Of a DNA stretch of 64,000 bases, positions 1 through 64,000 are shown piece after piece (the first letter of the stretch is position 1; each line of letters starts with the position of its first letter). The translations under genes were made by a program, and so were the position numbers. Source of the DNA: a virus (taxonomy: Duplodnaviria > Caudoviricetes); the IMG/VR virus record IMGVR_UViG_3300028591_000168, positions 1 to 64,000 of that record; one strand, given 5' to 3'. The notes below the pieces were generated by a model. It ran no database searches, was not told where the DNA came from, and saw nothing but the letters and a program-made list of their open reading frames with translations.

Positions 1-42
1 GGACTCCTGGGAAGTGATATCAGGATATCACAAGATGGATCC

Positions 43-126
43 ACAGGTGCGCTCGGTCGTAAAGTCGGGGCTTAACAGGTGCGCTCGGTCGTAAAGTCGG
101 GGCTTAACAGGTGCGCTCGGTCGTAA
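43..126. repeat. 32-bp tandem repeat, 2 full copies plus a 20-bp partial copy
   Basis: ACAGGTGCGCTCGGTCGTAAAGTCGGGGCTTA starts at 43, 75 and 107 (partial); no spacers. Confidence 0.95.
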
Positions 127-293
127 GGCGGCCGGCAAAAACTTGGCCACTCCCGTGTTCTACCGATCGCACAGGTTGCGCGCAGATCGTACAGGTGGCA
201 CAGGCGGCAAGACAGCCTTAATCCCGTAACCAGGGTATCGTCATACAAACGATGACTTTTTGTTGGTTACAAGGAAAGGTTGTTGATGCCTGT

Positions 294-311
294 CAGGAAA
301 GAGTTTTGATC
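294..311 (-). promoter_or_regulatory. Class I upstream motif (GATCAAAACTCTTTCCTG on -), copy 1 of 7
   Basis: CAGGAAAGAGTTTTGATC on +; recurs at 766, 1163, 1577, 2184, 3253, 3531. Promoter function is inferred. Confidence 0.55.
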
Positions 312-420
312 AAAAGAAACAAGGATATAGGAAAGAAAAAAGAAAAGGAAAGAAAAAAAAAGAAGAAGAGAGAGACGAGGATAGCTCCGTCAAGGTGCGA
401 AGCTTTCTGTGATATCACGA

Positions 421-3485: not shown

Positions 3486-3530
3486 GTGGATTTCACCACC
3501 TTTCAGTGTTATCAGCCTGTTGTGGCCTTT

Positions 3531-3568
3531 CAGGAAAGAGTTTTGATCCGCCGAAGGCGGGTTTGATC
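3531..3568 (-). promoter_or_regulatory. Class I motif with GATC-flanked hairpin (GAA loop)
   Basis: CAGGAAAGAGTTTTGAT-CCGCC GAA GGCGG-GTTTGATC. Confidence 0.6.
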
Positions 3569-3689
3569 ATTATTGCAAGTACGGTATGATCTAAGGAAAG
3601 GTATCCCTACTGCTGAAGCCCCTTGTGTCTACCGTAGGGTAAAAGGGACAGCAGGCATTGCCGTCCCCTTTCACCGTAGGTGTCACAAT

Positions 3690-15900: not shown

Positions 15901-15974
15901 TTTTGTTCCTTCTGCTGTTTATGGGGGCTTAGGACCCTTTCTTCTGATATCAAAAGAAGCCGCATTAAACAAAA
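15901..15974 (-). ncRNA. twister ribozyme A
   Basis: UUUUGUU-UAA-UGC-GGC-[P3]-AGGGUCCUAAGCCCCC-AUAAACA-GCA-GAAGG-AACAAAA; P1, P2, P4 and both pseudoknots intact; predicted cleavage 15967/15966. Confidence 0.88.
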
Positions 15975-18100: not shown

Positions 18101-18110
18101 CGTCAAGAAG

Positions 18111-20090: not shown

Positions 20091-20181
20091 AGTGAATTCC
20101 TCCTAAAACAAAGTGTTAATAACGGCTTTATGTAAACACTGTGATATCAACAACGGCTTTGAAGATATCTCAGTGGAATTG

Positions 20182-20210
20182 TTGACAAAGAAAAAGCCTT
20201 ATGGTATAAT
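20182..20210 (+). promoter_or_regulatory. consensus extended sigmaA promoter, antisense to the 36-aa peptide genes
   Basis: TTGACA-17-TATAAT with TG at -15/-14. Confidence 0.8.
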
Positions 20211-20315
20211 AAGGCTAAAGTTGAACAGCAAGATTCTCTCTAGTCTTATCTTGCTACAGCTGTTGTACTCTTAGGTAGCTGAAAGTATAGGCAAAAATAT
20301 CGTATGTATGGTAAG

Positions 20316-20426
20316 TTAACTGCCAAGCAACATTTTGGTAAGACAATCTGCGAAGTAGTACAGAATGTCAAACCAGACATCGATGGCGTTGATAACTGTG
20401 GCAATGTCTACCATTAACTTCCACAC
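20316..20426 (-). CDS. small hydrophobic peptide, family W, copy 1 (36 aa)
   Basis: AAGGAGG RBS, GTG; MWKLMVDIATVINAIDVWFDILYYFADCLTKMLLGS*. Confidence 0.8.
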   Translation of the reverse strand: MWKLMVDIATVINAIDVWFDILYYFADCLTKMLLGS

Positions 20427-20705
20427 AACGAACAGCCTCCTTTCTGACAAGCTAAGAGAACAATCTCTCTTGTTACAGCAAGAGACCCTGCACAAAGCAT
20501 TAGTAAGCATCTTAGCAATAAGGTGCTTACTATCGCTTTGTACAAAGGAATGTTTGCTAATGTCTTGTGCAAAAAGGTTTAACGGGGCTTCAGAGTGTTC
20601 CGAAGCCCCGAACAGCAAGCAGGATTATCTGTATCTTATCCTGCCAAACCAAGGTACTCTTAAAAAGCTCAAGGTATAGTAAGATTATCTGACGTATAAT
20701 GAAAG

Positions 20706-20816
20706 TTAATTGCCAAGTAACATTTTGGTAAGACAATCTGCAATGGCATACAGAATGTCAAACCAAGTCGTAATGGCGTTGGTAAGAGTTGCTGCTTCGA
20801 TTATCAACTTCCACAT
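20706..20816 (-). CDS. small hydrophobic peptide, family W, copy 2 (36 aa)
   Basis: AAGGAGGT RBS; MWKLIIEAATLTNAITTWFDILYAIADCLTKMLLGN*. Confidence 0.8.
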   Translation of the reverse strand: MWKLIIEAATLTNAITTWFDILYAIADCLTKMLLGN

Positions 20817-20950
20817 ACGAAAGAACCTCCTTCCCCTTACTTTTGTTAAGAGTATCAATCTCTCACACTGTCACTGTGAGACCCTGCACAAGGCATTAGC
20901 AAACATTCTGCCAAGAAAGTGCTTGATAGCGGTTTGTACAAAAAAAACAC

Positions 20951-20978
20951 AAAAGCCCTCCAAAACAGAGGGCTTTTA
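20951..20978. terminator. bidirectional terminator-like hairpin
   Basis: AAAAGCCCTC CAAAACA GAGGGCTTTT. Confidence 0.7.
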
Positions 20979-20996
20979 GTGTCTGAAAAGGAGGAG

Positions 20997-21025
20997 GAGC
21001 AGTTTAACGTCATGTGTTCAGGACA
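20997..21025 (-). ncRNA. H-type pseudoknot motif, copy 7 (degenerate S2)
   Basis: UGUC/GACG-UUAAAC-UGCUC, 3 nt after the stop at 21028. Confidence 0.45.
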
Positions 21026-21027
21026 AA

Positions 21028-22785
21028 TCAGAATGGCACATCGTCGAGGTCAATAGGCTCGCCACCCCAATCGTCGTCGTCTGTGTCATAGGAGGATATA
21101 TCGTCCTTTTCGCCACTGTTCTCGCCACTGTAATGTTGTTGCCTGTTCTTGTGCCACACCTGTCTTTCTTGTGACTTGGCTTGTTGCATCCAAATACCCA
21201 AAGGCGTGTACCAGCACAAGGACGCCTCCTCGTCTTCAGGACTAAGAGGTATCTCAATGCCGAACATATCAAGCATCGAGTCGTAGTCAAACTTAATACT
21301 GCAGCGAAGTTTGTCGAAGAATTGCTTGACGTCTTCCCCCTGTTGCTCCCTGCAGAATCCTGCGGCGTACAGATACCACAGGAATTCGTAAGTGTCACTG
21401 CAGCAAAAATATCCTTTGTCCACAATGTCACTTACGAATTTATTAACGGGGGTCCACCTATTTTTCTCGGCGTCAACAACGTAGCATTGCTTGTCAAGAA
21501 ATTCAGCGAACTCCCATATGTTTATAACAAAATGGGGGTGCTCTACTGCAAACTGTCTTTCGATCCAAAATGCAGTAATTTTATGTTTGTCAAAGCAAAC
21601 GAATGACTCCGTGTACTTGTCGTCGTCTGCTTTATTTCTTTTGACAGCCTTTTTGAAGGCTTTTAAGGTTTTGCACCCTGAGCTTTCGTCAAAGGCGTGT
21701 GCTACCCTGTCTTCAAATTGAACTGAAGAACTGACGTCGTGTGAGAATGACGCCTTAATAACAGGGTATTTTAACACAATGCCGAAGCCGCCTAAAAACT
21801 TATTGCGCTCTGTTGCACAAATTTGGGCGTTTGTCGGCAGATTGTTCAGCTCTTCTAACCGAGTATACAATCCGCCCAACGACCTGTCGCACTGGTTAAA
21901 TGCCCACAGCCCGTGATTAACAATAATTCTGTCACGACGCCCGTCAAGGCCGGAACCTATTTCTTCCGTCCTGCAGAGCTCACACTTCTCGTCCCTGATT
22001 ATGCTCTTGGTGACGTAGAAGCGGTCTTCTGTCGTGGTTAACGTATACACCGTCTTAACAGGCCTTGTTAAAGACGGTGTCTCCGCATTCCACGGAGCTT
22101 TGGTTTTGCGACCGCAAATGGGACATACAACTTCTTCTTTTAAGAAGCCGTAATCTTCTAAGTCTTGATCGTCGCAGGTGCACTTCCATTGCCACTTATA
22201 ATAACCATTGGAGACGTTGCTTATTGCACGCAACAGTTCTTCTTGGGTGAACCGTATATCGTGTGTTTCCATAACTGGCAGTGACACGCCGTAGTTTAGC
22301 GCGATTTCGCACTGCCACGCTGACGTCACCCCGTTAACCGTTTCAGGAGGATAGCTTTTTACCAGGGTGGCGTTCTTTGTTAACCACTCAAGATCCTCCG
22401 CCGTCTTGACATAAAAATGCCACGGCGTGGTGCCTTTTGCGGTATAGCAATACACCACAGCCGGCAGATCGTCTGCCATTGCCATGAACCTGTTGTCCCT
22501 TTCAGGCACAGGCCATTTATCGTGCTTACTGCACACGGCAAGCTCTTCGTTGAGAGCAGTTTCGTATGCCGCCAGCGCGGCCTTGACAGCTTTGCGCGCC
22601 TTTCTTGCAAGGCGAGCTGCGGCGCGAGCCTTTTCTGCGGCACGACGAGCCGCCTTTTTAGCTTCGACAGCACGACGTTTTTCAGCCTTTTTGGCCTCAG
22701 CGGCGCACATTGTCACAAACTCGTCGATAGTGACTTTCTTAGCTGCCAGCGCAGCTTGAATTTTGGACTTCAGATTAATCAACAT
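21028..22785 (-). CDS. 585-aa protein: Ala/Lys-rich N-terminus, Cys zinc-ribbon, predicted ART-like domain
   Basis: KCTC/CPICGR/CELC; NHGLWAF...ICAT...GGFGI...DVSS...YTE...FW. Confidence 0.75.
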   Translation of the reverse strand: MLINLKSKIQAALAAKKVTIDEFVTMCAAEAKKAEKRRAVEAKKAARRAAEKARAAARLARKARKAVKAALAAYETALNEELAVCSKHDKWPVPERDNRFMAMADDLPAVVYCYTAKGTTPWHFYVKTAEDLEWLTKNATLVKSYPPETVNGVTSAWQCEIALNYGVSLPVMETHDIRFTQEELLRAISNVSNGYYKWQWKCTCDDQDLEDYGFLKEEVVCPICGRKTKAPWNAETPSLTRPVKTVYTLTTTEDRFYVTKSIIRDEKCELCRTEEIGSGLDGRRDRIIVNHGLWAFNQCDRSLGGLYTRLEELNNLPTNAQICATERNKFLGGFGIVLKYPVIKASFSHDVSSSVQFEDRVAHAFDESSGCKTLKAFKKAVKRNKADDDKYTESFVCFDKHKITAFWIERQFAVEHPHFVINIWEFAEFLDKQCYVVDAEKNRWTPVNKFVSDIVDKGYFCCSDTYEFLWYLYAAGFCREQQGEDVKQFFDKLRCSIKFDYDSMLDMFGIEIPLSPEDEEASLCWYTPLGIWMQQAKSQERQVWHKNRQQHYSGENSGEKDDISSYDTDDDDWGGEPIDLDDVPF

Positions 22786-22879
22786 GATAAGCCCTCCTTA
22801 GAGCTATGGACAAAAAAGTTAACAACGGCTTTATGTAAACACAACTGTCGTTATTAACGCGACAGTGTGGTTGAACAGT

Positions 22880-22942
22880 TTTTCCCGTCTGCGTTTACAG
22901 AGGCTTCGGACTCTTAACCGTTAGGTTAGCCGCATTAGAAAA
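22880..22942 (-). ncRNA. twister ribozyme B
   Basis: UUUUC-UAA-UGC-GGC-UAACC/GGUUA-AGAGUCCGAAGCCUCU-GUAAAC-GCA-GACGG-GAAAA; predicted cleavage 22937/22936. Confidence 0.88.
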
Positions 22943-22948
22943 TAGATC

Positions 22949-22977
22949 TTGACATTTGTGATATCAAGATCTATAAT
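22949..22977 (+). promoter_or_regulatory. consensus sigmaA promoter, antisense to the 41-aa peptide gene
   Basis: TTGACA-17-TATAAT. Confidence 0.8.
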
Positions 22978-23051
22978 GTCAGATAAGTTCTGACAAACTT
23001 CTGCGATTATTACGTTCTCGAGAAAGAAACAGAAAGGCATGCTAGCCAGAA

Positions 23052-23651: not shown

Positions 23652-23726
23652 ACCTTGTGCACCTCCCTACAAAAAAGAGATATCTTTTATTGTTGTTACA
23701 GTCAACAGAAGATATCTCTTTTTGTC

Positions 23727-24455: not shown

Positions 24456-24477
24456 GGGCCTCAAATGAGGCCCAAAA
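24451..24477. terminator. terminator hairpin whose U-tract doubles as the P1 strand of twister E
   Basis: GGGCCTC AAAT GAGGCCC flanked by A/T runs. Confidence 0.7.
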
Positions 24478-27172
24478 GTTTCATATTTTCTATTATCTGC
24501 TGCCGCTGCTGTTGCAGCTTTTCGACACTCACGGACATAGTCCGCTTGCGCTGTGTGCAGCGGCGTGCGCATTCTTCGGGATCGGTGTCCACGAAATGCG
24601 CGTTAATTTCGTAGCCGCACTCCCTGAGGACGTGTGCCACGATTTTAAGCGAGCCGTTGTCCCCAACCATGGGGATAGCGACGTTGTACCCTTTCACCGC
24701 GAGATACTGCAGGACCCAGCTAGCAATCTTGCTGGACTCTCTGCAGACATTAGTGGCGTCGCCGCCGTTGTACTCGGGCAGCAACCACTTAACAACGTCG
24801 GGATCGACAGTATAGTAGCCGTCAAGACCTCTAACGTATGTCGACTTACCAGAGCCCGGAAGACCGCAAACGATCGTAGCCTTACGGTCTCTTTTAGCTA
24901 CCTGGTCCGCTCTTCTAGTGAGAAGATTGAACAGATATGCCCTCAGCCACGGGCGACTTTCTTCAAGGCCGAAATGACCCCAGGTGTCTCCTTCGACCTT
25001 GATAGAGTTGACTGCGCTGTCAATACCGTGTTGCCAATAGGCAGCGCAGTACTCTGAGGCTTCCATGCTGCCCTGCAGCTCACTATCGGTGAACTTCAGA
25101 ACATACATTTGTACACCTGTATCTTGCGCAATGTCTGTTAGCGCTTTAAAGAAGTGGGGGTGTCCCACCGCAAAATCTTCCTTGATCCACATTGCAAGGA
25201 GTGAAGCATTCTTGCCCATTCGTACGATAAGCTCAACGTACTGACAGGCATTGTTGCCGTACGCCAAGTGATCTTTGACGGCGTCGTTATACGCCTTTCT
25301 ATTCTTAAGTCCAGCGTGGAAATTACGGGTGGCGTAGCGTTTGTCGCTATCCTCCTCGTCCCGTTCGGACCAAGCATCGGAGCAGGTGTAGTCAAACGCC
25401 GCTTTGATATCAGGGTGTTCAATTGTTACCCCAAAATCTCCGCAGAACTGCTCCTGCTCCGTGGTGCAAAATTCCACGGTTTCAGAGAGAGAAAGGAACT
25501 CCCTGAAACGCTGCAAAGCGCCGTGGACGTTGTTCTCTCCCTTTCTGAAAGCCCACAGACCGTGGTTGACGGTAATGTTATCCTTGACACCGTCAAGACC
25601 GCCACCGTAATAGACAGTTTGGCAGTCGTTGCACATTTCATCGCTGTCAAGGTTGGCAATCGCTATGCTGCCTTCCACAAGTCTAACTTCGTATCTTATA
25701 GAAGACAAGTAGAAGTTGCTATGCCGGCAATAGCTGTGTATGCTCTCCTTTCCGCACTTCGGGCAGCGTTTACTTTCGTTAACGCCTCCGTTTTGCGTTT
25801 TCGCAGCGACGAAAATTAGCTCCTCCGCTGAATTAACCTTCGCGACTTCTTCTTTTTGAAGGGCCTTTTTGCAATCGGGGCAAATCAGTCCATTTTCAAG
25901 CCGGCCTTTTATTACGCCAACATGTTCTCCTTTCTCGTTGACGTAATATTGCCCGAAGGAATCCAGGGTTTCGTAGTAATTGTTTTCGTCACCTCCGTCC
26001 TCTTCCTCCGAGAGCTTGCCGCAGATTGGGCAAAGTACTGCTACCCGTTCTGCAACGATATTGTCGTTGTCGTCGAGCTCGTTTGTGGAAAGAAGATCAA
26101 CGGTGCACTCCCGCCAAGAATTGACAGGTCTGCTCTCGACTTGCAAAAGCAGTGCCTGCTTGCACTCTTCGAACGACGTATCGACGAAGGTGTAAGCGTC
26201 CTCTTCCTTAATGGAAGTGTCGTTTGCGTCAAGGAAGACACCTTCTATTTCAAGCCGCCCTTCCTGGTAATTTCTATGGGCGTACGTTATTACGCTCTTT
26301 TTCAAGAGCAGTTTGAAGTCACGCACCGTGTCTATTTCGTAACAACGGCTGTCGTGCTTCTCAACCGGATTCTGTACCTCAGCGTAAATGGTGTACCCTT
26401 GCTGGAGAAGCTTATCGATAGCCTTCGCATACTCACAGCACCTTTCTGCGCTGGGCAGATACTTGAGCGCGTCCATAAGAAGCTGGTGTTTCTCCTTAAC
26501 AGCTTCAAACGCGTTTTCTATTGCGGCCGACTTGGATTTGAATTCTGCCTCGGCCTCTTCATTATTTTTCTTGTCCTCTTCTGTGAGGCCCCAGCCGAAG
26601 AAGCCGGTTTTTACTCGAGCGCTATATGCACTATACGCTTCGGTTCTGTTCTTTTCGTACTCCTCCTCTGCCTGCAACAAGTCTGCCTTAGACTTCTGGA
26701 GCAAGTCCAGTGCCTCTTGCAGGCCGTTCAACATTAGAGACTTGATAGCCTCCACCGGCTTGACCGGCTTGACCGATTCTTCCCAAGCCTTACCGGCCTT
26801 GATGTCGGCAGCAATGGCTGCCTTTTTATCGGCCATTGTGCTGGCCTTCCAGCTGTCCAAGGCCGCTTTCTCGGCCTTACGGGCGCGGCGGGCAGCAGCT
26901 TTCGCCCTGCGCGCCGCATCTTTTGCGAGGCGTTCTTCCTCGCGTGCTTTCTTGGCCGCGATAGCTGCGGCTTTTCTTGCGGCCTTGGCAGCCGCTTGGC
27001 GGCGTGCCTCGGCTTCCTCAGCGCACGCCAGCACGAACGTGCTGGTCGTGTAGCCAGCTGCTTTCAACGCAGCGGACAATTTCTTGCTGATCGTGTTGTT
27101 TTTCATTTTGAACATCTCCCTATTTTTGCTTTCGTTTTTGTTGCTGTTGTTGGTGTTGTTCATTTTCGTCAT
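24461..27172 (-). CDS. 903-aa polyvalent protein: Ala/Lys-rich N-terminus, zinc ribbons, predicted ART-like domain, C-terminal zeta-toxin-like/AAA_33 P-loop kinase
   Basis: CPICGK, CPDC, CPKCGK, CNDC; NHGLWAF...FCTT...YVE...MW; GLPGSGKSTY...VDPDVVKWLLPEY; AAGGAGG RBS. Confidence 0.75.
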   Translation of the reverse strand: MTKMNNTNNSNKNESKNREMFKMKNNTISKKLSAALKAAGYTTSTFVLACAEEAEARRQAAAKAARKAAAIAAKKAREEERLAKDAARRAKAAARRARKAEKAALDSWKASTMADKKAAIAADIKAGKAWEESVKPVKPVEAIKSLMLNGLQEALDLLQKSKADLLQAEEEYEKNRTEAYSAYSARVKTGFFGWGLTEEDKKNNEEAEAEFKSKSAAIENAFEAVKEKHQLLMDALKYLPSAERCCEYAKAIDKLLQQGYTIYAEVQNPVEKHDSRCYEIDTVRDFKLLLKKSVITYAHRNYQEGRLEIEGVFLDANDTSIKEEDAYTFVDTSFEECKQALLLQVESRPVNSWRECTVDLLSTNELDDNDNIVAERVAVLCPICGKLSEEEDGGDENNYYETLDSFGQYYVNEKGEHVGVIKGRLENGLICPDCKKALQKEEVAKVNSAEELIFVAAKTQNGGVNESKRCPKCGKESIHSYCRHSNFYLSSIRYEVRLVEGSIAIANLDSDEMCNDCQTVYYGGGLDGVKDNITVNHGLWAFRKGENNVHGALQRFREFLSLSETVEFCTTEQEQFCGDFGVTIEHPDIKAAFDYTCSDAWSERDEEDSDKRYATRNFHAGLKNRKAYNDAVKDHLAYGNNACQYVELIVRMGKNASLLAMWIKEDFAVGHPHFFKALTDIAQDTGVQMYVLKFTDSELQGSMEASEYCAAYWQHGIDSAVNSIKVEGDTWGHFGLEESRPWLRAYLFNLLTRRADQVAKRDRKATIVCGLPGSGKSTYVRGLDGYYTVDPDVVKWLLPEYNGGDATNVCRESSKIASWVLQYLAVKGYNVAIPMVGDNGSLKIVAHVLRECGYEINAHFVDTDPEECARRCTQRKRTMSVSVEKLQQQRQQIIENMKLLGLI

Positions 27173-27436
27173 GATAATCAACCTCCTTTGGTTGCACACT
27201 CTGTCTGATATCTTCAGCTCAGAGTCGAGACCCATGACGTGGTCTCTTTACAGGTTTACCCACCCTTGATTATAGTGAGATGATCCTCACTCGAGATTAT
27301 ATTGCCTGTACAACGCTGTCAGAAAAAGCTAACGTTGAAGGCGAGTCTCGGTTGCCCATTCAAACCTGTTAGAAAGCATGGGATATATGTTAACGTAAAC
27401 TCATATATCGGATATAAGCTTACGGTTGATCAGTAT

Positions 27437-31804: not shown

Positions 31805-31871
31805 CAGTGGTTACCAACAATAACCGGTAAAAATGTTGATATCAGCTGATATCACAAGGAGGTGATCGACA

Positions 31872-32420: not shown

Positions 32421-32460
32421 CGGTTGATATCAGCTGATATCACGAGGAGGTGATCTTACT

Positions 32461-32901: not shown

Positions 32902-32914
32902 GGTGATATCAAAG

Positions 32915-34582
32915 ATGGCAGGTAGACTATCTACAGCAAAAAAGCTTATGAACTTTTTAACTAAAGATTTGCAAATGGATACCAAAGAAGCAAAAAATAT
33001 TCTTGGACAATTAGGACAAAAAGATAAATTTTATGAAGGAGATAATGCGGAACGCTTTTTAAGTCACATAGAGGAAAAATTTAAAATAGCAAGAGACAAC
33101 CCACAATTGGGTCATACTGATACTGATCCCATAATAAAGGACTTTTTGTCGGTAAATAATATTGGACAAACGACTTGGGACAGAGGATACCGTACGGGAA
33201 CTTTTACAGAGAACTGGAAGGATATGGGATTTGACCGGTATGATTATCATGATAGATATAATCAAATTTATAATGATAATTTACGACAAGCAGTGAGAGG
33301 TAATTTTAATTACAGTAAATTAAACGATATTGAAAAACAGATGTCTACAGTAAGTCCAGAAAGTCTTGCTGAAAAAAATGGTTTTTCAATAAGTAAAGAT
33401 GGCAAGTTAATACCAAAATCAGAAGAATTAAAAATAGAAAAACCAGAGGGAGCACTAACTCAAGAAGACATTGATCGTGTAAATAAAGAATTTCACCAGC
33501 GTAAAACACCAATAATGGCTTTTCAAAGAGAATATGAAAGACTGCGATTTGCTAAAGACATGGGCATGGACCCTAAATATCTCAGTCTTGAAAGTATGGA
33601 CAGAGTTAAGGCAAACATACGAGAGAACTTGGATAAAGCATCTCAAGGTGGATCGGTTAACCAGATATTTCTTAATCAACTGGATAAAGATGGGGCGATA
33701 CGGGCACGCCAAGCAGCTATAGACAATGCTAATAAAAATATTGCTGACAGTCAGAAGATTCTTGATGAGTATGAAAACCGTCTAAAAGAACAAGGTGCAA
33801 ATTCTGATGTTATTCAAGAGTCCTTTGATACTTTTAATTATTTGGATCAACTAGCAAAGGTCACAGATGAACAAATAGCAGCGCAGGCAGGTCAGACAGG
33901 TTCTGACGTAAAGAACGTGATAGAAACAATGAAAGCAGCCCGTACTTTTGCACAAAATCCAACTGACGAAAAAGTAATAGCTGATTACGTAAAAACAATG
34001 CAAGATAAAGGATTAAAGGGTTATGATATAGAAAATCAGACACATATTGGGAAAGCTTACGCAGCACACGTACGTCTAAAGCAGGCTCAGGAAGATCTAG
34101 AAAAGATAGGATCAGGCAAAACCTTGCAAGAGACAGCGGCAGGATCTGCACAAGAAGCAGCCGTAGCTGACGCTGCTGCTGACTTCTCAGGCGTTTTGCC
34201 TACTTACGAACAAGCTATGGCTGGTAACGGAAAGGTTTCTCTTGATCGTGCTATGTTACGAGAAAGAATGAAAGGCGATCCGTCAAGCTGGGGCTTTGAC
34301 GCTGCGGCTGAGCATCTTGCGAAAGAACAAGATACGTACCTTGGTAAAAGAATTGAAGAGATTAAAAAGAGCAAGGCTTCTGACGCCGAAAAGAGAAAGA
34401 TGTTTGATGACGCTATTGCTACCGTGCAAAAAAACGTAGCTGAAGGTCCCGGTATGTCTAACTACTTCTTTGGTAATCAACTTCATACGGGGGCTGTAGG
34501 AGCGGCAGCTATCGTAGGAACCATGGGCGTAGCCTTTGGTGGCCGCAAGAGTAACGCTGAGCTTTACTCGTCACCATTCTAA
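32915..34582 (+). CDS. helical hypothetical protein with C-terminal Gly/Ala segment (555 aa)
   Basis: AAGGTG RBS; ends GAVGAAAIVGTMGVAFGG. Confidence 0.8.
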   Translation: MAGRLSTAKKLMNFLTKDLQMDTKEAKNILGQLGQKDKFYEGDNAERFLSHIEEKFKIARDNPQLGHTDTDPIIKDFLSVNNIGQTTWDRGYRTGTFTENWKDMGFDRYDYHDRYNQIYNDNLRQAVRGNFNYSKLNDIEKQMSTVSPESLAEKNGFSISKDGKLIPKSEELKIEKPEGALTQEDIDRVNKEFHQRKTPIMAFQREYERLRFAKDMGMDPKYLSLESMDRVKANIRENLDKASQGGSVNQIFLNQLDKDGAIRARQAAIDNANKNIADSQKILDEYENRLKEQGANSDVIQESFDTFNYLDQLAKVTDEQIAAQAGQTGSDVKNVIETMKAARTFAQNPTDEKVIADYVKTMQDKGLKGYDIENQTHIGKAYAAHVRLKQAQEDLEKIGSGKTLQETAAGSAQEAAVADAAADFSGVLPTYEQAMAGNGKVSLDRAMLRERMKGDPSSWGFDAAAEHLAKEQDTYLGKRIEEIKKSKASDAEKRKMFDDAIATVQKNVAEGPGMSNYFFGNQLHTGAVGAAAIVGTMGVAFGGRKSNAELYSSPF

Positions 34583-34597
34583 GGTGGTGTAAACATT

Positions 34598-37500
34598 ATG
34601 GCGTTACCTTTAATAGAAAGATTGCTTAATGCCAGAGGAATTTCTGACACTACCGCTATCAAGAACTTTCTAAACCCCCATACCGCTTTCGAAAACCCCT
34701 TTATGATGAAAGATATGTACAGCGCAGTCAGCAGAATCGAAAGAGCTATCAAAAGTGGTGAGCGGATAACTGTTTTTGGTGATTACGACGTTGACGGGGT
34801 ATCAGCTACTGCGATAATGTATCGTACCCTGTCAGATCTTGGAGCTGCTGTTGATACCTACATTCCTAAGAGATCTGAAGGATACGGTCTTAACAGTAAC
34901 GCTCTCAAAAGTCTTGCTGAAAAAGGTACTAACCTGTTAATAACGGTTGACACGGGTATCGGTAACGAGAAAGAGATCTCTGAGATCGCTGACAAGTTTG
35001 ACGTTATCGTTACCGATCACCACCTGGTACCTGAGGGTGGTGTGCCGTCAGCCGTTGCTGTCCTTAATCCGCACCAAGCAAAAGATTACTATCCTAACAA
35101 AAATCTTAGTGGTGCAGGCGTTGCCTTCAAGCTTAGCCAAGCCTTGAGAAACAAGATAACAGGTGCTGATATCCAAAAGTCAGTTGAAAATCTTGAACTT
35201 GCAGCGTTAGCTACCGTTGCTGACGTTGTGCCTATGACAGGAGAGAACCGAAAGATCGTAGCTGACGGCTTAAAGGCTATCCAAGCGTCGCAAGATAAGG
35301 CAATCCAAGCACTGTTAAAAACGACAGATCTTGCACAAAAAAAACACCTTACTGCTGAAGATATCGGTTTTAAAATAGCACCCCGTATTAACGCTGCAGG
35401 CAGGGTAGAAGATCCCGGCATAGCGCTGTCCTTGTTCACTCTTGATCAACAAGAGAACAAAGCTGTCTTTCAAAAAATAGCTGATTCTTTGTCCGAGCTT
35501 AACAAGAAGAGAAAAGCTATAGAAGCTGATATCGTTCAAAGTGCAGAAAAACAGCTGTTACAACTGCGACAACAAACAGGCGGTTATATCAGTTCCGTCA
35601 TTGTTGAAAACAAAGGGTGGCACGAGGGCGTTGTAGGTCTTGCGGCAGCAAGGTTATCTGAAAGACACAAACTGCCGTCGATAGTGCTAACCAGCGAAGA
35701 CGGCAAGATCTATCACGGATCTGCCCGCAGTGTACCGGGCTTTAACGTTATGGATGCGCTTAGGGAAACTGACAAGTTCTTGCTAAGGTATGGCGGTCAC
35801 GAACAAGCAGCAGGTTTAGTCATAAAAGCAGAGAACCTTTCTGCCTTCAAGGCTGCGTTTGATAACTTTGCAAGGGATAACTTTCCGTCTCTTGCTGCTC
35901 TTGAACTTGTAGACGCAGATCTGGATCCTGCAGAAATAACCTTAGCTGACGCTAAAGAACTTGAAAAGATGGGGCCTTTTGGTGTTAACAACGAAAGACC
36001 AATTTTTGGAGTCTCTGACGTTAGGGCCAGTGACGTTAGAACAAGCAGTGACGGTAAACACTTGTTTTTTAATATTGGCGATAAACGTGCTGTAGCTTTT
36101 GGTGCAGGTAACCTGGAAGACTTAGTTAGGGACAGCAACGTCGACGTTACCTTCTCTCTTGATATCAACGAGTTTAGAGGAACAGAAAACGTTCAGCTTA
36201 ACGTTAAAAGTGTAAGGCCTGTTGCCGGTAACTCTGTTAAGGCCTTGTCTGACACTGTTATCCAAGATATCTACAAGTTCTTGCAGACAAGAAGCAATGA
36301 ACCTTTTAACGTTAGTACCTTGGCTGCTGACTTCAGTAAAAAAACAGGTGTGCAGATATCCGGGTATGACTTTGGTACAGCTACTAAGATCTTGGAAGAG
36401 TTAGGACTTTTTTCTGCTGTAGTTAATGACGGATCTGTTTTTACTGCAAGTCATAATGGTAATATCAACTTTACCGGCTCACAAACTTACCGTAACCTTA
36501 AAGGTATCACCTTATCAGGGGCACCTGTTCGAGTTATTCCTGTCTCTGATCCTGTTGAAAATGTAACACCTGTTACTCCTGCCCCTTCTGTATCACCTTC
36601 TTCCGGTACACCTACCGTTGCAGCGTCAGTAACACAAGATATCGTCGTATCACCACCACCTGTGGCAGAAGAAACGGCAGCAGCAGTTATTACAGAAAAT
36701 GTAGCTGCGCCGGTAGATCTTGTAACGTTGCCTGAAGAAAACATTTCTGCTGAGACAGTTGTTAAGGAAACAGAAAAAGCCGGTATTGTCGTTGATACGC
36801 CAGATGCTCCACCTGTACCGGTACAAGAAGAGATATCTGCAGCAGTACAAAAGGATCTCAAGATTACTCGTGATATCCCGGAAGTTTGGGACTCCGTTTC
36901 TGTTAACACTGCAGCTGACGTTGCTGCCCCTGTTAAACCTACGCTAGTATCTGTTGACCCTAAAATAGCTGACAGAGTTCGTAATATGAAACAGAAGTTA
37001 GCAGAGAGTAAAAAGCAAAACAGCACAAAGCCTAAACAAGAACGACAAAAAAGACAAACGGATATCAAACCGACAAAGCCTGAAAAAAGAGAGCAGTGGT
37101 TTATTGACAGGATCAATGAACTTATAAAATATTTTCGTTATCCGTTACCCGCTAATGACGCACCATTAGATGAAATTTTATTGAGCAAGATTAGAGACGA
37201 AAGTTTAAGAACACAGATAAGCTATCCTGATCCTGATCTTGTTGACGAGAAGACTTACATACAAGAACTTATACGTCTTAAGGAAGAACAAGCCAGCAGA
37301 GATCTTGACGCCTTAAAAAAAATTATTAACGTTAAGACCGACGAACTTGGTAAAAAACTTGTTGATATCAGGCTTAACGAAATAGGAAGCGCTGCAGAAG
37401 AAGCTCTCAGAGAAAGTTACGAGAGTGGCAATATTGAGGCAGCAACTACGTTCTATGACGAAGATCTCGCAAAAGTCAGAATAAGAAAGAAATACGTAAA

Positions 37501-49806: not shown

Positions 49807-52800
49807 ATGGCTTTATATCCTAACGAGTTTAACACTCAGGAGACGTTACAACCCGGTGCACGAGGTGAGGTATTTCGCAATACCGGCATTCCGGGGCACC
49901 GCAGAGACGAAGATAGAGTTAACCGTACTCAAATTCGTTTAAACATATCAGCTCATGACGTTCCTAACGTTAAGTATGAATTTGATTACAGACTGCCTGT
50001 ACTCTTCAGATACGGTTGGGCCGTAGGTTTTAACCGTGCGGCGTGAAAATTGTAATGTCAAGTAAGGACTGTGAACCCCTAATAATCACAGAATTTCCTG
50101 CTAATGAGACTGCGGCAGGCTAAGGAAGTAATTCCATAGTCTGAAGCCCGCTAAAGTCGTGCAAAAACTTCTTCCCGATTACAGAAGTGAGTTAGTGCGG
50201 TTAGGGAACGTTATATGGCTACGATAAGAAATGTATGGTCTTAAGCGTCGAAGCCTGAGTCAAGGAAATCGGATTCTAAAATGCCTTGATATCGCAAATG
50301 TTTTGCACAGAAGGTTCCAAATGATATGGTTGAGTCAAATGGAATAGCAACAGTGAGAAATCACGGGGTTGTTGCTTACGAAAGTTCTTCTACGGCGCAT
50401 AGTACAAGCCTAAGTAACGTTATATACCTAGACATTATAAAACACGCGAGGCCCAAGCACTCTTAATGAGTGACTGAACTGGTAAAGTTCTTAAGTACCA
50501 AGAACCTAAGGGGAAGTTGAAATTCTTGGGCGTCAGAGCTGCCATAGTAGCTGTGATACTGTAGAAATACAGTGGAGCCAAGGGCAGCAGTCGACTAGAA
50601 AATTTATGCCAGATAAGTTCCTGAAATGGGGGCAGTAAGTATGGCAAGTTTATATAGTAAGTGCTTAGCTGAAGATAATATACGGCAAGCTATTAAGACG
50701 GTGTTAAGTCACGAAGGCAGCAAAACACCTGGACCAGACGGTATCAATAAGGATAACATTGGGAACAATGTTATTAAAGAAATTAAGTTAAGGCTTCGGA
50801 GATATAAAAAGGTCAGCAGCAAACAAGTGCAAATTCCTAAAAAGAGTGGAAAAACAAGAACACTTACAGTCTGCAATCTGTATGATAGGATAGCACAGCA
50901 AGCTGTATACCAGATTATTGAACCGATAGTTGATACCAAAATGTCTAAGAACAGCTATGGATTTCGCAAAGGTTTACAAGCAAAAATGGCTGTTGCAAAG
51001 GTAGCTAACGTATTTCATGCAAGTAAGCATAATTATACTATAGAACTTGATTTCAAAAGTTGTTTTGACAATATTCCACTTGAAAAAGCAATAGGAGAAC
51101 TTGCTAAACTTGGAGTTAAAGATCCTAAGTTGTTAGCAACGATAAAACACTTAATGTATATTTCAAGGGAATATAAAGGGATAGGACTTGGACAGGGAAC
51201 TATCCTTGGCCCAATACTTGCGAATTGTTTCTTAAACAAGTTAGATCTTTGGATAGAAGAAAATATGGACTTAGGGGTAATAACCCACAGAAAAAGAGAT
51301 TTTGAGCTTCATAAAGAAAATTACACTGAATGGCTAAAATCACGCGGTAGAAAACCCCAAGGTAAATATTTAAGGTATGCAGACGATACGTTAATTATTG
51401 TTCACAGTAGAAATGAACAATTAGCCGTATCAGAGGCAGTAAGCCGTTTCATTGAAAAAGAACTAAAAATCGGCATTAATCAAGAAAAGAGCAAGCTTGG
51501 GTACAACACGGTAAACTTCTTAGGGTTCACCATTAAAAAGAATATAAGAGAAAAAGAGTATATAGGGTTATACATAGACGAAGCCAATGAAAAAGAAATA
51601 AAAGAAGTAGTTAAGAGTCACAACTTTGTAAGCTTTGAAGAAGTTTGGAGATTCAAGAAATGGCTTGTAGGTATCCTTAACTATTACGATATTGCAAACA
51701 ATATCGGAAGTATTTTGCGATATATAACAAAAAGGTTACTTAACCGAGCTAGGAAGATAGGAAACCTTCAAAGAGAAGAAGGTACGACAAAGTATACCTG
51801 GACTCATAAAGAACGTAGCATAGTGTTGGACATCTATGAAATCAGAAAAAACACTAAGCTTTCCTATAAGGAATATATCTATGAATCAAAATGGTTAAAT
51901 ACCAGGGAACTACTTCAAGTTTGGGAGTATAGTGACTCAAAGCTTTGGCACATATATGCTTATCCGTTGTTTACTAAACAACGAGGCAAGGATCCTATAA
52001 CAGGCAAAGACCTTAAGCTGGGCGACATTGATATCCATCATATAAAACCTAGAAGACAACAAGGTCAGAATGCATTAGACAATCTTATAATGGTGAGTAC
52101 AGCAACACACAAGTTAATTCACAACAGTGAAGAAACGCAATCTAAGAAGTTACAATGGTACAGAAAACAACTTGATAGAAAGTACTAGTCGATAGAGAGC
52201 CGGGTGCGGTGAAAGCTGCACGCCCGGTTCGGAGGAGGGGAAAAGGTAGAGATTGTATCAAAACCTTACCTATTCCTATAAATTGTTATCCCTAAAGGCC
52301 GCATTGTTGCTTGTGATCCTTATATGGATATCGTTAACTTTGAAAGCAAAAAGTTGTTCAATACAATGACTCTCGCCAACGGTGGTGTGCCTGTACGTCT
52401 TCGTGAGGTATCTGACGTTTATCCTACTTGGGGCAAAGAAGCTACTGATATCGTTAAGCCTACGTCACAAGGTAACGCAGTGCAAAATGCACAAAAAGAA
52501 TGGACGCCGCTTGCGGGAATGGCTGCTGCTTACGAAAAAGATGTTTACCGTCCTTTTAAGAGTAAAACCAGTGCAGAAGAACAACTTGACGCAGCAGGTT
52601 ATGAAGTTAACAAAGAAAATGGTCGTATTCAAGACAAGACTACGAAGACTGAAGTAGTTAATGTGCGTCCCGGTAATATCCCACTCGGTATGCTTGAACG
52701 TAATGAATATACCCGTGACGAAGATGCTTTTAACGGTATTATGCCCGGACCTATCCTTACTGATCCTATAGTTGAGCTTCCTTGGTTCGCGTATAAGGAT

Positions 52801-62500: not shown

Positions 62501-62865
62501 AACGCAGCTTTACTCTTGGTACCGTCGTTACAGACGGCACTACCATGGCACCCGTTGAAAGTGTCTTCCGCCGTCTCAGCGCAAGCCGCATAGTCGGTGC
62601 TATCGAAGAACTTATTCGTGCCGTAGCAGAACCTTACATAGGCAAACAAAACCATGACGCTAACCGTAATAGTTTACACACAGCTATTAAAGGACAGCTT
62701 GATAAGCTCGTAGGTACTCTGCTTGAAGATTATCAATTCCAACTTATCGTTGATAGTAGAGCTGAAAGATATAATTACATAGATATAGAGTACGAACTCG
62801 TTCCTATTTACGAAATTCGTCAGATTCGTAACAGAATCTCTGTTAAAGAACGTCTTACTACGTAA
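59536..62865 (+). CDS. contractile tail sheath protein (1109 aa)
   Basis: LPGVY N-terminus, LIIGTAFNGP, YASYVYG-like segment; C-terminal RRLSASRI...EPYIGKQN...IDIEYELVPIYEIRQI. Confidence 0.85.
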   Translation: MSIFENEYDLPGVYMYVLPDYSYGYDTSLFGSTDPVLIIGTAFNGPNNGQPIEIYSKEHASYVYGKVYDNVKQVESNLVAGIHDAWDRGCRTIYACRVGGIDMYKDFKFNIDVPYRLRVMSMFPSNVEKECFMRYENKEGQEKVIIYKPAERATVLQRRQGIVEGDNTMIKTTIEINGDYGLTKDTPLMDFINLINGHVDNNVIKLGIVDLNGKDVTNDLKVRSIAVGALFQGIYFIGREQSLCQEETELKFNIIDSYKDYDKNGKLTTVEGKKPFTRYQGNYYRTLEINTDVRTPYPIYATPGTMQKIMKDVGITVNVKIGREWDWLEVYRSTFKAFEPDNKDYEEVELGGFELYQRLGMGFAKTAQALIRKNSKGEIVIPPRIRETPPDNANNIVQLVDGYYSILQDVPIKYRVLTCTTAEASTKGKLPKAQQFIRTAPISLEALQSMITITPKVNEEDRTIARSYKLRFRNLPETSTANINEVYRSEVYDVMSIVDESTLKAMKPGDVPADTYFLKRVKKEGKGENDIDVSDYTYTLVRVGTTIEEIVSGGILAHKKIIGVTPALDLTRNADNITFKDQGNQYYFFAAQGIPETETTIFSDPKYSLGDKEIGETTIIKYTFVPQVGADLLGDPDAEVPQYPFRVVYYNDDGEKVEKNAKFILGSQLDNVFVYQIGAEQTEYNEGTANPTIDMPSATNQLQPVGDYNGMMSDDQNVPVVYAEDMFYQINDIIVNSSTFVDITLDEFVETLNEHEIFSKIFEISLTNRGESYKDERLIASIYFWQRSGEEGTYLYDEQAFVDALEGLQDPVNAFTLDNNPVEWTQDRSIDYDYNAYIPYTTTDNFARQLAQHCTYTELKTGSTWGFIGTGRVGAVDVQSVGRSVNEILAKDFSLYAKNARGRNMMDKENMPYPIGRNLSIIFTQYEEPIDTEDYTFISNGAAGYAGMVSTLPLDQSSTNQPFNVEKLSFYLARHQLAALNAKGVVALKRSFTLGTVVTDGTTMAPVESVFRRLSASRIVGAIEELIRAVAEPYIGKQNHDANRNSLHTAIKGQLDKLVGTLLEDYQFQLIVDSRAERYNYIDIEYELVPIYEIRQIRNRISVKERLTT

Positions 62866-62948
62866 CGTTACAATAGTGAAGAAGGAGGATAACTTAGCAT
62901 GACATATTTTGCTTGGTTATCCTCCATATCCTTAAAGGAGTGAGAATA

Positions 62949-63703
62949 TTGGCAGGAACAGTTGCAAGTGAGTACACTAAGACTTACACGTCCTTTTCAG
63001 GCTGTGATCGAAACCTGGTATAACTACAACGGAATATACCAAAACTGTGTCACATGATATCTGAACGATCTTTGGTAAGATATCTGGTAAGTGCGGAATT
63101 AAGCGGGAAACTCTCTATGTTTTACCAAATGGACACAAGAGACAACCCGAACCGAAGGCTCAAAGGACTGAGTCAGGGGCAACGCGTAGATCTTGCAATA
63201 ACAGATCCAAGAGTCCGCACCGTGAAAAGATCTGTCAGGCTAAAAGATTGCCTGATATCACGAAGAGGTACGCTGAACTTACAGGTGACTGTAAGAAGAC
63301 AAGGATAAAAAGCCTTGTCGATAACAACGTCGATAGTTTGTACATTTGGCAACGTGGTAATTGGCGAATTACAAGCCATAACGTACCATAGAATTATATG
63401 TGGCATAATAGAGTGATCTATTATGATAAAACAGGGTGAACCTAGAAATCTAGGGTGTCCTTCTGATATCTTAATGATAGCGATATAGTAACTGATATCT
63501 TGCAGAAGGGCTAACAGGGGAAGCACTATGGTGTTATCCTGTGCCAAGCTTTCGTTAGAAAGAAGGTCAATCGACTATCCGTAAGGAGTAGGTGCAAGGT
63601 GAAATTCCTTGTTCCGAAGCGCCCTGCCCTTCTTATGAAGGTGATGATATAGTCAGAAATTCATAATAAAATGAATTTTGGTACAAAGAGAAAAAGCGCC
63701 GGT
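62949..63703 (+). CDS. tail tube protein 5' part, join(62949..63008,63333..63389,63681..63703), continues beyond the window
   Basis: Spliced: MAGTVASEYTKTYTSFSGCD|IVCTFGNVVIGELQAITYH|VQREKAPV; AAGGAG RBS; follows the sheath gene. Confidence 0.8.
63009..63332 (+). mobile_element. group I intron 1 in tail tube gene (324 nt)
   Basis: P AAGCGGGAAA, Q ACCCGAACC, P7 ACGCGUAG/GUACGCUG; ends in G; same subtype as terL intron 2. Confidence 0.85.
63390..63680 (+). mobile_element. group I intron 2 in tail tube gene (291 nt)
   Basis: P1 ACCAU/GUGG; AACAGGGGAA, AUCCUGUGCC, UCGACUAU, GAUAUAGUC; ends in G. Confidence 0.82.
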
Positions 63704-64000
63704 TAACCCATAAAGTATGCCGGCCTAAAATCCTGCTTAAAACGGTGAAGGTTAACACTAACGCCGTGGGTAAGATACAGATTGATCTTTATGAGATTTC
63801 GTGTTATAATCTGTATCAAAGCCTGTAGAGACTTGGCTACACGAAGCCTTAATGGTTTTCCAGATCCCCGTAGGGTTGATCATAAAGGAGAGTTTGAAAA
63901 GTGAATAATGATAATATGACACCAGAGTTCGCATGGTTCTTGGGATATCTTTTTTCTGATGGTTCTGTTAAAGATTCAAGTGGTGATGGTATCTTTAATT
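63704..64000 (+). mobile_element. group I intron 3 in tail tube gene (truncated by window end)
   Basis: P1 GCCGGU/GCCGGC; AAACGGUGAA, ACGCCGUGG, GUAGAGACU. Confidence 0.8.
63901..64000 (+). CDS. intron-encoded LAGLIDADG homing endonuclease (partial)
   Basis: AAAGGAG RBS, GTG; FAWFLGYLFSDGSV. Confidence 0.75.
   Translation, partial: MNNDNMTPEFAWFLGYLFSDGSVKDSSGDGIFN

Follow-up and report, generated by a model that had tools for sequence, protein, structure and literature searches.

The palindromic hexamer GATATC is present in about 20-fold excess in the phage contig from which the window (the whole 64-kb stretch analyzed here) is taken, and this excess is a DNA-level property and not a coding artefact. 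The trait has a single origin, in a clade of six uncultured jumbo phages from the sheep gut, and this clade has lost the avoidance of GATC and GATATC. The word can be read as a dyad-symmetric palindrome of about 8 bp, which is maintained at some 3 sites/kb genome-wide by a DNA-level force that acts wherever a position is free to vary. As best explanation we propose, at a probability of roughly 40%, that the clade carries a dimeric Type-II-like enzyme or reader with sequence specificity, that GATATC is its target, and that the word represents a selected, density-based site comparable to HIP1, the highly iterated palindrome of cyanobacteria.

Results

Frequency and shape of the word

Exact counting yielded 177 GATATC sites in the window (16..63949, no strand assignment, consensus T-GATATC-A, median spacing 222 bp), which is very close to the earlier tally of about 175. 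Dinucleotide-preserving shuffles gave 9.7 ± 3.2 sites (max 18). The 17-22 sites expected in the original prediction were somewhat high, and thus the enrichment is larger than stated there. For the whole contig (79,562 bp), we found 237 copies (2.98/kb) compared with 12.1 expected from a first-order model (19.5-fold), and among all 4096 hexamers GATATC was the strongest outlier. The extended form TGATATCA accounted for 93 of the 237 sites (39%; 1.17/kb). This contig is a fragment that covers roughly one quarter to one half of the genome (CheckV 55%); the closest relative measures 344 kb.

Locally, over 80 kb, the spacing of the sites is Poisson-like (exponential), with no short periodicity or clustering. 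Flank information is confined to ±1 (0.26 bits), and positions -2 to -8 contribute a relative entropy of at most 0.04 bits. Relative to the sense strand, the flanks show dyad symmetry (T at -1 in 92 cases, A at +1 in 102 cases). This symmetry and the lack of any signal beyond ±1 fit a dimer that reads double-stranded DNA and speak against a signal in RNA and against a repeat element; a dispersed repeat of the REP or MITE type was rejected because conservation does not extend past ±1. We also ruled out a half-site grammar with a spacer, since GAT-N(k)-ATC reached 0.9-2.7 times expectation for k = 1-12, and zero spacing alone was enriched (20-fold). Type II restriction-modification enzymes recognize words of this format, a palindrome of 6 contiguous bp.

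Coding and non-coding sites

ORFs of at least 100 codons harbor 76% of the sites, and the density is higher outside (4.6-4.9/kb) than inside ORFs (2.7/kb). When the sequences of these ORFs were shuffled synonymously with preservation of protein and codon usage, 37.2 ± 4.9 sites (max 53) were obtained compared with the 180 observed (z ~29). The original prediction had proposed to look for a disappearance of the enrichment under such a shuffle and in intergenic counts; the excess persisted in the former and intergenic DNA was denser. Together with codon-order shuffles, the synonymous shuffles rule out a codon or dipeptide artefact. Synonymously attainable slots were filled to 66% in frame 0, 55% in frame 1 and 47% in frame 2, and the degree of filling was alike in the two transcription arms (71% and 65%). 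Sites in both arms and in coding frames had been noticed earlier.

Asp-Ile pairs were encoded by GATATC in 115 of 173 cases, although codon usage predicts about 15%, and the dipeptide itself is 1.84 times as frequent as expected. With this over-use of Asp-Ile, the phage proteins are altered to accommodate the word. The synonymous neighbors GACATC and GATGTC are depleted to 0.30 of expectation (among the Asp-Ile pairs, 4 GACATC vs 115 GATATC), and the transversion neighbor GATATA is depleted as strongly as the transition neighbors.

Elements with sites and regions with few sites

Two copies of an 18-bp perfect palindrome (TGATATCAGCTGATATCA), each containing two GATATC sites 10 bp apart, are located at 31837..31854 and 32425..32442 (no strand assignment), directly 5' of the RBS of the genes 31872-32420 and 32461-32901, respectively. 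Four RBS-to-start spacers carry a site (57356, 65686, 73495, 74340). On the minus strand, a putative promoter read by eye (22940..22985, perfect TTGACA-N17-TATAAT) has TGATATCA (site 22960) in its 17-nt spacer, and a 38-nt element with GATATC at both ends (23679..23716) has an identical second copy at 27540-27577; a search with its 25-nt core returned no matches. Three of eight twister-P1-like ribozymes contain the word in the terminal hairpin loop: one on the minus strand (15904..15971, site 15946 in a variable loop) and those at 27438-27513 (site 27488) and 28783-28849 (site 28824). The five paralogues have other loops. Another site (41935) lies inside a group I intron match (41744-42002). 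The presence of sites in RBS-start spacers and group I introns had been noticed before and is borne out by these positions; the related claim for twister and hairpin loops holds for the terminal loops of the three ribozymes.

The longest site-free stretch (2.8 kb, 20170..22959, no strand assignment) covers an ORF of 585 aa (21028-22785), in which none of the three Asp-Ile pairs is encoded by GATATC. A second one (2.26 kb, 32911..35167, no strand assignment) covers an ORF of 559 aa (32903-34582) and the start of a RecJ-like fusion gene; it is the gap originally described at about 32.9-35.1 kb, and it is real, since the site at 32905 is followed by the next one at 35168. The group II intron with its reverse-transcriptase ORF (50027..52291, plus strand), which is missing from one related strain, is sparse as described, with two sites (50288 and 52030) in 2.26 kb. 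Two sites (0.72/kb) were also found in an ORF of 924 aa (24461..27235, minus strand) whose C-terminal domain is P-loop kinase-like. The lack of sites in mobile introns and in some genes is what recent arrival would predict.

Origin, retention and avoidance in related phages

The six enriched phages (5- to 20-fold; the five relatives 5- to 16-fold) form one clade with a support of 99/97. Sister phages without the trait share about 70% portal identity; in the sister pair L001 and L002, GATATC is not enriched and GATC is absent (27 and 23 expected). Many relatives avoid GATC completely (0 vs 108 and 0 vs 65 expected) or do so for GATATC (0 vs 9.5 expected; 1 vs 12.3 in Bacillus phage 0305phi8-36), so that in the hosts of this family both words are targets of restriction. 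The enriched clade alone exceeds expectation for both words (GATC 1.14- to 1.78-fold). A DNA search of GenBank phages identified no near relative. We do not claim iterated palindromes of their own for the sister lineages: a hint for ACCGGT at the L099 locus fell to 4.4-fold in the complete genome G002, where it was not the top word.

Comparison with L004 indicated 40 shared GATATC sites out of 61 and 55, whereas 38% would be shared for any hexamer (z ~4.5). For L006, 13 of 27 sites were shared (background 21%), and for L005, 8 of 27 (background 26%), which is no excess. The comparison with the 344-kb relative covered one 22-kb locus. In the portal gene, a relative with 86% identity shares two of ten site positions, and multi-base and non-synonymous changes have given rise to new sites. 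When contigs of four sheep-gut runs were compared over 36-56 kb, none of the 38 listed SNPs fell into 12 GATATC sites (about 1 expected). The outer-base preference differs between subclades (T..A to R..Y; in L007, R was found in 81 of 92 half-sites), as expected if the specificity of a reader co-evolves. This switch predicts matching specificity differences in reader orthologues, for which TGATATCA and AGATATCT would be the test words.

Search for a writer or reader

Six-frame searches of the 79.6-kb contig, which is a partial genome, detected no methyltransferase of the D12 (PF02086), N4/N6 (PF01555) or C5 (PF00145) class, and scans of roughly 60 ORFs against Pfam, PHROGs and NCBIfam revealed no methyltransferase and no recognizable DNA-binding domain. 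The search for such genes that had originally been suggested therefore came back empty for this part of the genome. Among 37 distant family genomes, all outside the enriched clade, two encode a D12 enzyme; five of the 37 were searched for the N4/N6 and C5 classes, and neither class was present in these. Possession of a D12 enzyme does not follow GATC tolerance across the family, and the family D12 enzyme used as probe had no homologue on contigs of the size of those of the enriched clade. M.EcoRV is a relative of Dam with overlapping substrate specificity (PMC4417163), and thus one enzyme class could cover both GATATC and GATC.

DarT modifies the second T of the motif TNTC in single-stranded DNA (PMC5179494). 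GATATC is the sole palindromic hexamer that contains TNTC, on both strands, and an early gene of the contig, with a product of 1209 aa, encodes a DarG-type macrodomain (DNA ADP-ribosyl glycohydrolase type). We rejected a link to DarT, since TCTC, TGTC and TTTC occur at 0.9-1.24 times expectation, so that TNTC words in general are not enriched, and since the 79.6-kb contig has no match to DarT (PF14487).

A portal scan of prokaryote genomes provided no prophage or host clues. Searches of viral, genome and metagenome collections with the 18-mer TGATATCAGCTGATATCA retrieved unrelated contigs with no protein similarity to the phage family; most of these contained tandem arrays of 10 bp or iteron arrays, and the matches in bacteria were at chance level. 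Iteron-like TGATATCA arrays with 10- or ~31-bp spacing occur in unrelated contigs from phages and metagenomes. A 260-kb jumbo contig (G411) retrieved from IMG/VR by its paired sites was rejected as unrelated and mildly enriched (0.54/kb).

Discussion

The excess of GATATC survives codon shuffles and is greatest in intergenic DNA, the word has dyad symmetry and is retained above background, and relatives deplete it. Taken together, these data argue for a force acting on the DNA itself, which may be selection or a repair-driven molecular drive; retention above background could in part reflect independent convergence under a drive. The earlier suggestion that a binding or modification site is favored is thus supported in general terms, in that a force at the DNA level favors the word as a site of recognition; its specific candidates (nucleoid, packaging, recombination, phage methyltransferase) are as yet hypothetical.

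From this pattern we infer the existence of a modification or reader, its encoder and its benefit. The simplest candidate would be an adenine methyltransferase of the EcoRV/Dam class or another GAT-directed modification. Such an enzyme would render the clade immune to GATC- and GATATC-specific restriction, which its relatives evade by avoidance. Each additional marked site may then add a small benefit, either as local protection or as a density-based mark for phage DNA, and selection, though weak, might in so large a population as that of these phages have filled about half to two-thirds of the free slots. Restriction protection alone explains the lost avoidance but not a 20-fold excess, so that the per-site benefit is hypothetical.

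GATATC might instead be bound by a non-enzymatic phage homodimer (nucleoid, packaging or genome-wide repressor protein, the last akin to the stoperator repressors of mycobacteriophages) that would coat or mark the phage chromosome, with density and not position under selection. We consider this rather unlikely, although the dyad symmetry over about 8 bp and the flank switch between subclades are consistent with it, as are the paired sites 10 bp apart in the 18-bp palindrome just 5' of two RBSs. In addition, the iteron-like TGATATCA arrays elsewhere suggest that proteins reading the word probably exist, and HIP1 has been linked to nucleoid structure in cyanobacteria (PMC5861425). However, no DNA-binding domain was recognized in the ORFs scanned from the 79.6-kb contig, the Poisson-like spacing lacks periodicity and clustering, and the lost avoidance of GATC is left unexplained by binding as such. 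Moreover, helix-turn-helix dimers typically read longer, spaced half-sites. Still less probable is a neutral drive, in which near-cognate words in heteroduplex or replicating DNA are turned into GATATC by very-short-patch-like or otherwise biased mismatch repair, without any benefit, as Elhai proposed for HIP1. The turnover of sites in the portal gene, the depletion of GACATC and GATGTC and the lack of sites in recent arrivals would all follow from it. On the other hand, we saw no Vsr-like or methyltransferase gene in the contig, relatives share more sites than the background level, and GATATA is depleted like the transition neighbors, contrary to what a repair bias for single mismatches would predict. 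A 20-fold excess is also far above the known very-short-patch effect on CCWGG in E. coli.

HIP1 is a property of the host genome in cyanobacteria, and the phage could mirror a GATATC-rich host via a shared mutational or repair environment. The closest matches of the Dam-type enzyme of the family are from Lachnospiraceae, which makes Clostridia the relevant host class, but in all 401 evenly sampled Clostridia genomes TGATATCA did not exceed about 0.09/kb, more than tenfold below the phage value. Four assorted bacteria had 0.17-0.42 GATATC/kb, and the sister phages do not share the trait, so mirroring appears very unlikely. An RNA-level GAUAUC signal (processing, pairing, kissing loop) or an artefact of codons, dipeptides or a repeat family is hardly credible. 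Some sites do lie in RNA hairpin loops and Asp-Ile is common, but the codon shuffle, the denser non-coding DNA, the occupancy of all three frames and both arms, and flanks that are symmetric relative to transcription and end at ±1 argue against it.

The saturating palindrome may, as a possible but somewhat doubtful extension, serve as a density-based identity mark, with a phage-encoded dimeric reader or writer at GATATC about every 300 bp telling phage from host DNA. Host DNA, judged from sampled bacteria, would have 7-17 times fewer sites than the phage. Such a mark could be used for protection, for selective degradation of host DNA or for packaging. In a long-shot variant, the TATC thymidines of both strands would bear a bulky adduct as the mark, and its attachment would be reversible; this variant is prompted by the unique TNTC content of the palindrome and by the early gene with the DarG-type domain.

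Nested among relatives that avoid GATC or GATATC, one clade has reworked its spacers, RNA loops, synonymous positions and even amino acids so that an EcoRV-type word stands about every 300 bp, and rewriting on this scale implies a putative sequence-specific reader or writer acting across a viral genome. Since there is a single datable origin and a non-enriched sister group, the gene responsible should emerge when gene content is compared across a single branch, which makes the role of iterated palindromes directly testable in a small system. The trait may point to a new way in which jumbo phages mark their DNA or counter restriction.

Comparison with known systems

Phage genomes are the textbook case of palindrome avoidance under restriction pressure. 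Avoidance concerns the same 4- to 6-bp Type II palindromes, but here the sign is reversed: the relatives avoid and the enriched clade is saturated. Chi (RecBCD/AddAB) and the uptake sequences DUS/USS resemble GATATC in being present in many copies and, on the proposed reading of GATATC, in acting by density in the discrimination of self from foreign DNA; in contrast, they are asymmetric and strand-polar, belong to cellular genomes and have known readers. The stoperators of cluster A mycobacteriophages are 13-bp asymmetric sites (~25-35 per genome) that are mostly intergenic and oriented with transcription. As for GATATC, many copies of one word occur in a phage genome, also inside transcription units, but GATATC is palindromic, reaches about 240 copies per 80 kb, lies mostly inside genes and has no orientation. 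Repressor sites of the stoperator type were therefore rejected for a palindrome with 237 copies, 76% of them within ORFs of at least 100 codons. AGTACT/CAGTACTG of E. coli jumbo phages would be a parallel, in which a palindromic hexamer is likewise weakly extended to 8 bp.

The closest counterpart is HIP1 (GCGATCGC; PMC5861425; PMC4390886). Both are short palindromes in at least 15-fold excess that occur in coding and non-coding DNA, are retained between related genomes, and are restricted to particular lineages, whose sub-lineages have variants of the word. Both have a core akin to a Dam-type site, GATC within HIP1 and an 'expanded Dam site' in the case of GATATC. HIP1 has known cognate methyltransferases (PMC4390886), whereas none was found for GATATC in the 79.6-kb partial contig, and HIP1 has a 10-90 kb periodic distribution (PMC5861425), whereas the GATATC data span 80 kb. 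Unlike HIP1, GATATC belongs to a virus, is AT-rich, consists of a 6-bp core with a weak 8-bp extension and has random local spacing, and its density (3/kb) is above that of HIP1 in most cyanobacteria. GATATC would be the viral counterpart of HIP1, a word that has lacked a settled function for three decades, and it displays three features of a HIP1-type word: an excess of at least 15-fold, dispersal beyond codon and peptide usage, and conservation above background.

GATATC excess and coding controls

The over-representation of the palindrome GATATC, which the original prediction had estimated by eye, was borne out by exact counting. We found 177 sites in the 64-kb window, and dinucleotide-preserving shuffles yielded 9.7 ± 3.2 (maximum 18). 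The window constitutes the initial 64 kb of a linear IMG/VR viral contig of 79,562 bp (CheckV completeness 55%), for which 237 sites were counted in total and 12.1 were expected from a first-order model. Among all hexamer classes (palindromes counted once per site), GATATC was by far the strongest outlier and the runners-up were sub-words of GATATC itself. The preceding base was T in 54% and the following base A in 57% of the cases, and TGATATCA is the extended consensus (93 of 237 sites).

Genes were called by a greedy longest-ORF approximation, and 180 GATATC sites were located within the 48 ORFs that reached a length of 100 codons. When synonymous codons were shuffled within each gene (protein and codon usage retained), 37.2 ± 4.9 sites were obtained (maximum 53), and shuffling of the codon order gave 19.8 ± 4.2. 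All three reading frames were used (115, 17, and 48 sites) and 66%, 55%, and 47% of the synonymously attainable slots were filled in these frames, so that GATATC occupies half to two-thirds of the free positions. Slot occupancy was similar in both arms (minus strand 71%, plus strand 65%). Asp-Ile pairs were encoded by GATATC in 115 of 173 cases, as compared with about 15% predicted from codon usage. The dipeptide itself was 1.84 times more frequent than expected (rank 2 among over-used dipeptides) and thus, the pressure for GATATC has altered proteins. The site density was 4.6–4.9 per kb outside ORFs versus 2.7 per kb inside. Since the excess persisted under synonymous shuffling and the sites were denser outside ORFs, the original prediction stands, and the excess is not a coding artefact.

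Site anatomy and placement

The distances between neighboring sites were exponentially distributed; the sites were neither clustered nor spaced at a short period, and their number per 1-kb bin averaged 2.94 (variance 3.45). GATATC is not a repeat element, since flank information amounted to 0.26 bits at ±1 and did not exceed 0.04 bits farther out. GAT/ATC half-sites were strongly enriched at zero spacing only, and the one-letter neighbor GACATC/GATGTC was depleted to 0.30 of expectation. On the sense strand the flanks were dyad-symmetric (T at −1 in 92, A at +1 in 102 cases), and this symmetry favors a double-stranded DNA reader over an RNA signal.

Intergenic GATATC occupies any sequence that is free to vary. 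The site at 22960 lies between the two hexamers of a perfect TTGACA-N17-TATAAT element, within its 17-nt spacer, and the sites at 57356, 65686, 73495, and 74340 are located in spacers between RBS and start codon. An 18-bp perfect palindrome with two GATATC 10 bp apart occurs in two copies immediately upstream of the RBSs of the genes at 31872 and 32461. Eight twister-P1-like ribozymes (E 2e-6 to 8e-10, 41–54 bits, all below the Rfam gathering score of 67) dot the early arm (window 15904–28849, minus strand). Three of the eight carry GATATC in the terminal loop, and one paralogue has an unrelated loop. These contexts and the slot counts agree with the predicted placement in both arms, in RBS-start spacers, and in twister loops. 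A 38-nt element with GATATC at both ends and TTGACT inside was present in two identical copies (23679–23716 and 27540–27577, minus strand). It is possibly an early promoter or operator that occurs twice, and IMG/VR yielded no further copy.

Site-poor segments

As predicted, GATATC was sparse in the group II intron (window 50027–52291; 2 sites in 2.26 kb). This intron is absent from a related sheep-gut strain, in which one contig joins 50027 to 52291 with 19 other letters in between. Similarly, contigs from two studies lack the group I intron of the large terminase gene and join ~41767 to 42037. Both introns are mobile, recently arrived DNA. The ORFs flanking the group II intron (49807–50046, 79 aa; 52324–53730, 468 aa) match by position one 559-aa gene (13457–15136) of the related phage locus L004, where it follows a 446-aa gene, and thus the window gene is split by the intron. 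Four ORFs escaped GATATC (21028–22785; 24461–27235, minus strand; 32903–34582; 59536–62865). The second of them is one of the few large genes nearly free of GATATC (2 sites); its 924-aa product has a P-loop kinase domain (AAA_33/Zeta-toxin-like) at the C terminus and gave weak matches to zinc ribbons.

Distribution among related phages

Near-identical sequence was found in sheep gut metagenomes of at least four studies. The portal homologues delineate a large jumbo-phage family of uncultured members, with contigs reaching 344 kb. Bacillus phage 0305phi8-36 and Moorella phage MTATph1 are distant relatives (portal identity 31–40%). The loci of relatives comprised 5–22 kb, and GATATC was counted in portal-centered loci of 14–22 kb. 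The window portal locus carried 64 sites (3.5 expected), and high counts were also obtained for L004 (portal identity 90%; 67 vs. 4.2 expected), L005 (83%; 19 vs. 1.7), L006 (79%; 34 vs. 3.3), L007 (72%; 46 vs. 5.0), and L008 (71%; 43 vs. 8.4). In the portal tree these six phages form one clade (support 99/97). The sister pair L001 and L002 had 3 sites each (1.4 and 1.2 expected); these two loci comprise 5.1 and 6.5 kb, for which the clade density predicts at least 10 sites each. Because the enriched six are monophyletic and the sister pair is not enriched, the data indicate that the enrichment arose once. Among seventy further family loci, the extremes were complete avoidance (0 of 9.5, 0 of 5.2) and a mild excess of 2–3.6-fold, and the cultured relative 0305phi8-36 had 1 site (12.3 expected). 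Several family lineages lack GATATC entirely (L124, L126, L140, L149).

Within the clade the GATATC core was constant but the outer base varied. T..A was preferred in the window, L004, and L006, and R..Y in L005 and L007. In L007, 81 of 92 half-sites had a purine and TGATATCA occurred just once; L008 leaned more weakly to R..Y (purine at 54 of 86 half-sites). The window and L004 (83.5% nucleotide identity) shared 40 GATATC of 61 and 55, while hexamers in general were conserved at 38%, and thus the sites are kept above background. New sites still appear in both lineages, some via non-synonymous changes.

GATC was absent from the sister pair (27 and 23 sites expected) and from many other family members (0 of 108, 0 of 65, 0 of 49), and a consistent GATC excess was observed in the enriched clade only (1.14–1.78-fold). 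GATC-free lineages (0 vs. 23–108 expected) include L084, L095, L113–L117, L142, and the Moorella phage L011. The contrast between the avoidance in many family members and the clade excess suggests that GATC and GATATC are under strong restriction pressure in the hosts and that the clade escaped both. M.EcoRV, a Dam homologue with overlapping substrate specificity, recognizes the Dam site in the expanded form GATATC (PMC4417163). From this escape and the overlapping specificities we infer that the clade gained protection at GAT-type sites, most simply by a modification. In the whole contig and the clade loci, GATC was the top 4-mer once GATATC was masked, and CATC/GATG occurred at 0.5-fold expectation. 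CTAG was strongly avoided in the clade (40 vs. 305 expected, 0.13-fold), more so than in most relatives.

Candidate readers and writers

The contig encodes a portal, a split terminase, a RecJ-like fusion protein, the group II intron reverse transcriptase, and, according to the original reading of the sequence, a putative YonO-like RNA polymerase region. In ~60 ORFs of this contig, which comprises at most half of the genome, neither D12, N4/N6, or C5 methyltransferases nor a recognizable DNA-binding domain were found. D12 enzymes were present in 2 of 37 family genomes, all outside the clade, and their presence does not track GATC tolerance; N4/N6 and C5 enzymes were absent from the 5 of 37 out-of-clade genomes searched for them. 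L291 of a distant family member (G412:C1:165206–165949) encodes a D12/Dam-family enzyme, 62–66% identical to counterparts from Lachnospiraceae and other gut Clostridia, which hints at a clostridial host range. Since this genome avoids GATC (10 of 61) despite its Dam-family enzyme, the enzyme may have another specificity. No homologue was detected on clade-sized contigs. Unrelated phage and metagenome contigs bear TGATATCA in iteron-like arrays, which suggests that proteins reading TGATATCA exist elsewhere. L014 (~3500–3730) has eight such sites in ~220 bp of non-coding DNA at ~30-nt spacing, and L074, L035, L037, L032, and L059 carry 10-bp tandem arrays of (TGATATCAGC)n.

A 1209-aa early protein (window 3730–7359, minus strand) combines DUF1848 (residues 71–285), a DarG-type macrodomain (318–481), and ~730 residues without assigned function. 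The macrodomain part alone matched NCBIfam antitoxin_DarG (E = 7.5e-28, below the equivalog cut-off) and also three solved macrodomain chains (5M3I, 5M31, 7OMU; best E = 2.3e-11). We take these chains to be DarG structures, a designation that is missing from the molecule names given by the depositors. The macrodomain probably serves as counter-defence against DNA ADP-ribosylation by a host DarT; no DarT gene was found in the contig. In single-stranded DNA, DarT modifies TNTC at its second thymidine (PMC5179494). GATATC is the only palindromic hexamer containing TNTC, but this class is not enriched (TCTC, TGTC, and TTTC at 0.9–1.24-fold expectation). On the simplest reading the domain is unrelated to the palindrome, and a link between the two is a sub-case of low probability.

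Interpretation

The pressure for GATATC acts at the DNA level, is dyad-symmetric and genome-wide, and has a single origin. We consider it most plausible, at a probability of roughly 0.4, that GATATC is modified or recognized by a Type-II-like dimeric enzyme or reader and that each site confers a small benefit, which would consist, for example, in protection or a density-based identity mark. A non-enzymatic binding protein reading GATATC is a weaker candidate, and accumulation by a repair-driven drive appears less likely still.

That the phage mirrors the GATATC content of its host is very improbable, since no sampled candidate host genome came near the phage density. Four assorted bacterial genomes had 0.17–0.42 GATATC per kb (2.98 per kb in the phage), and the highest TGATATCA density among 401 evenly sampled Clostridia genomes was ~0.09 per kb (1.17 per kb in the phage). 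The saturation contrasts with the avoidance in relatives and is not mirrored in the sampled hosts; the actual host may lie outside this sample. We give hardly any credit to an RNA-level function or an artefact, which conflict with the dyad symmetry of the sense-strand flanks and with the survival of the excess under synonymous and codon-order shuffles, respectively.

Our literature search on GATATC in connection with phages or metagenomes retrieved nothing relevant. The closest known phenomenon is HIP1, the highly iterated palindrome of cyanobacteria, which is 15–300-fold over-represented and conserved by selection, its function being unresolved (PMC5861425; PMC4390886).
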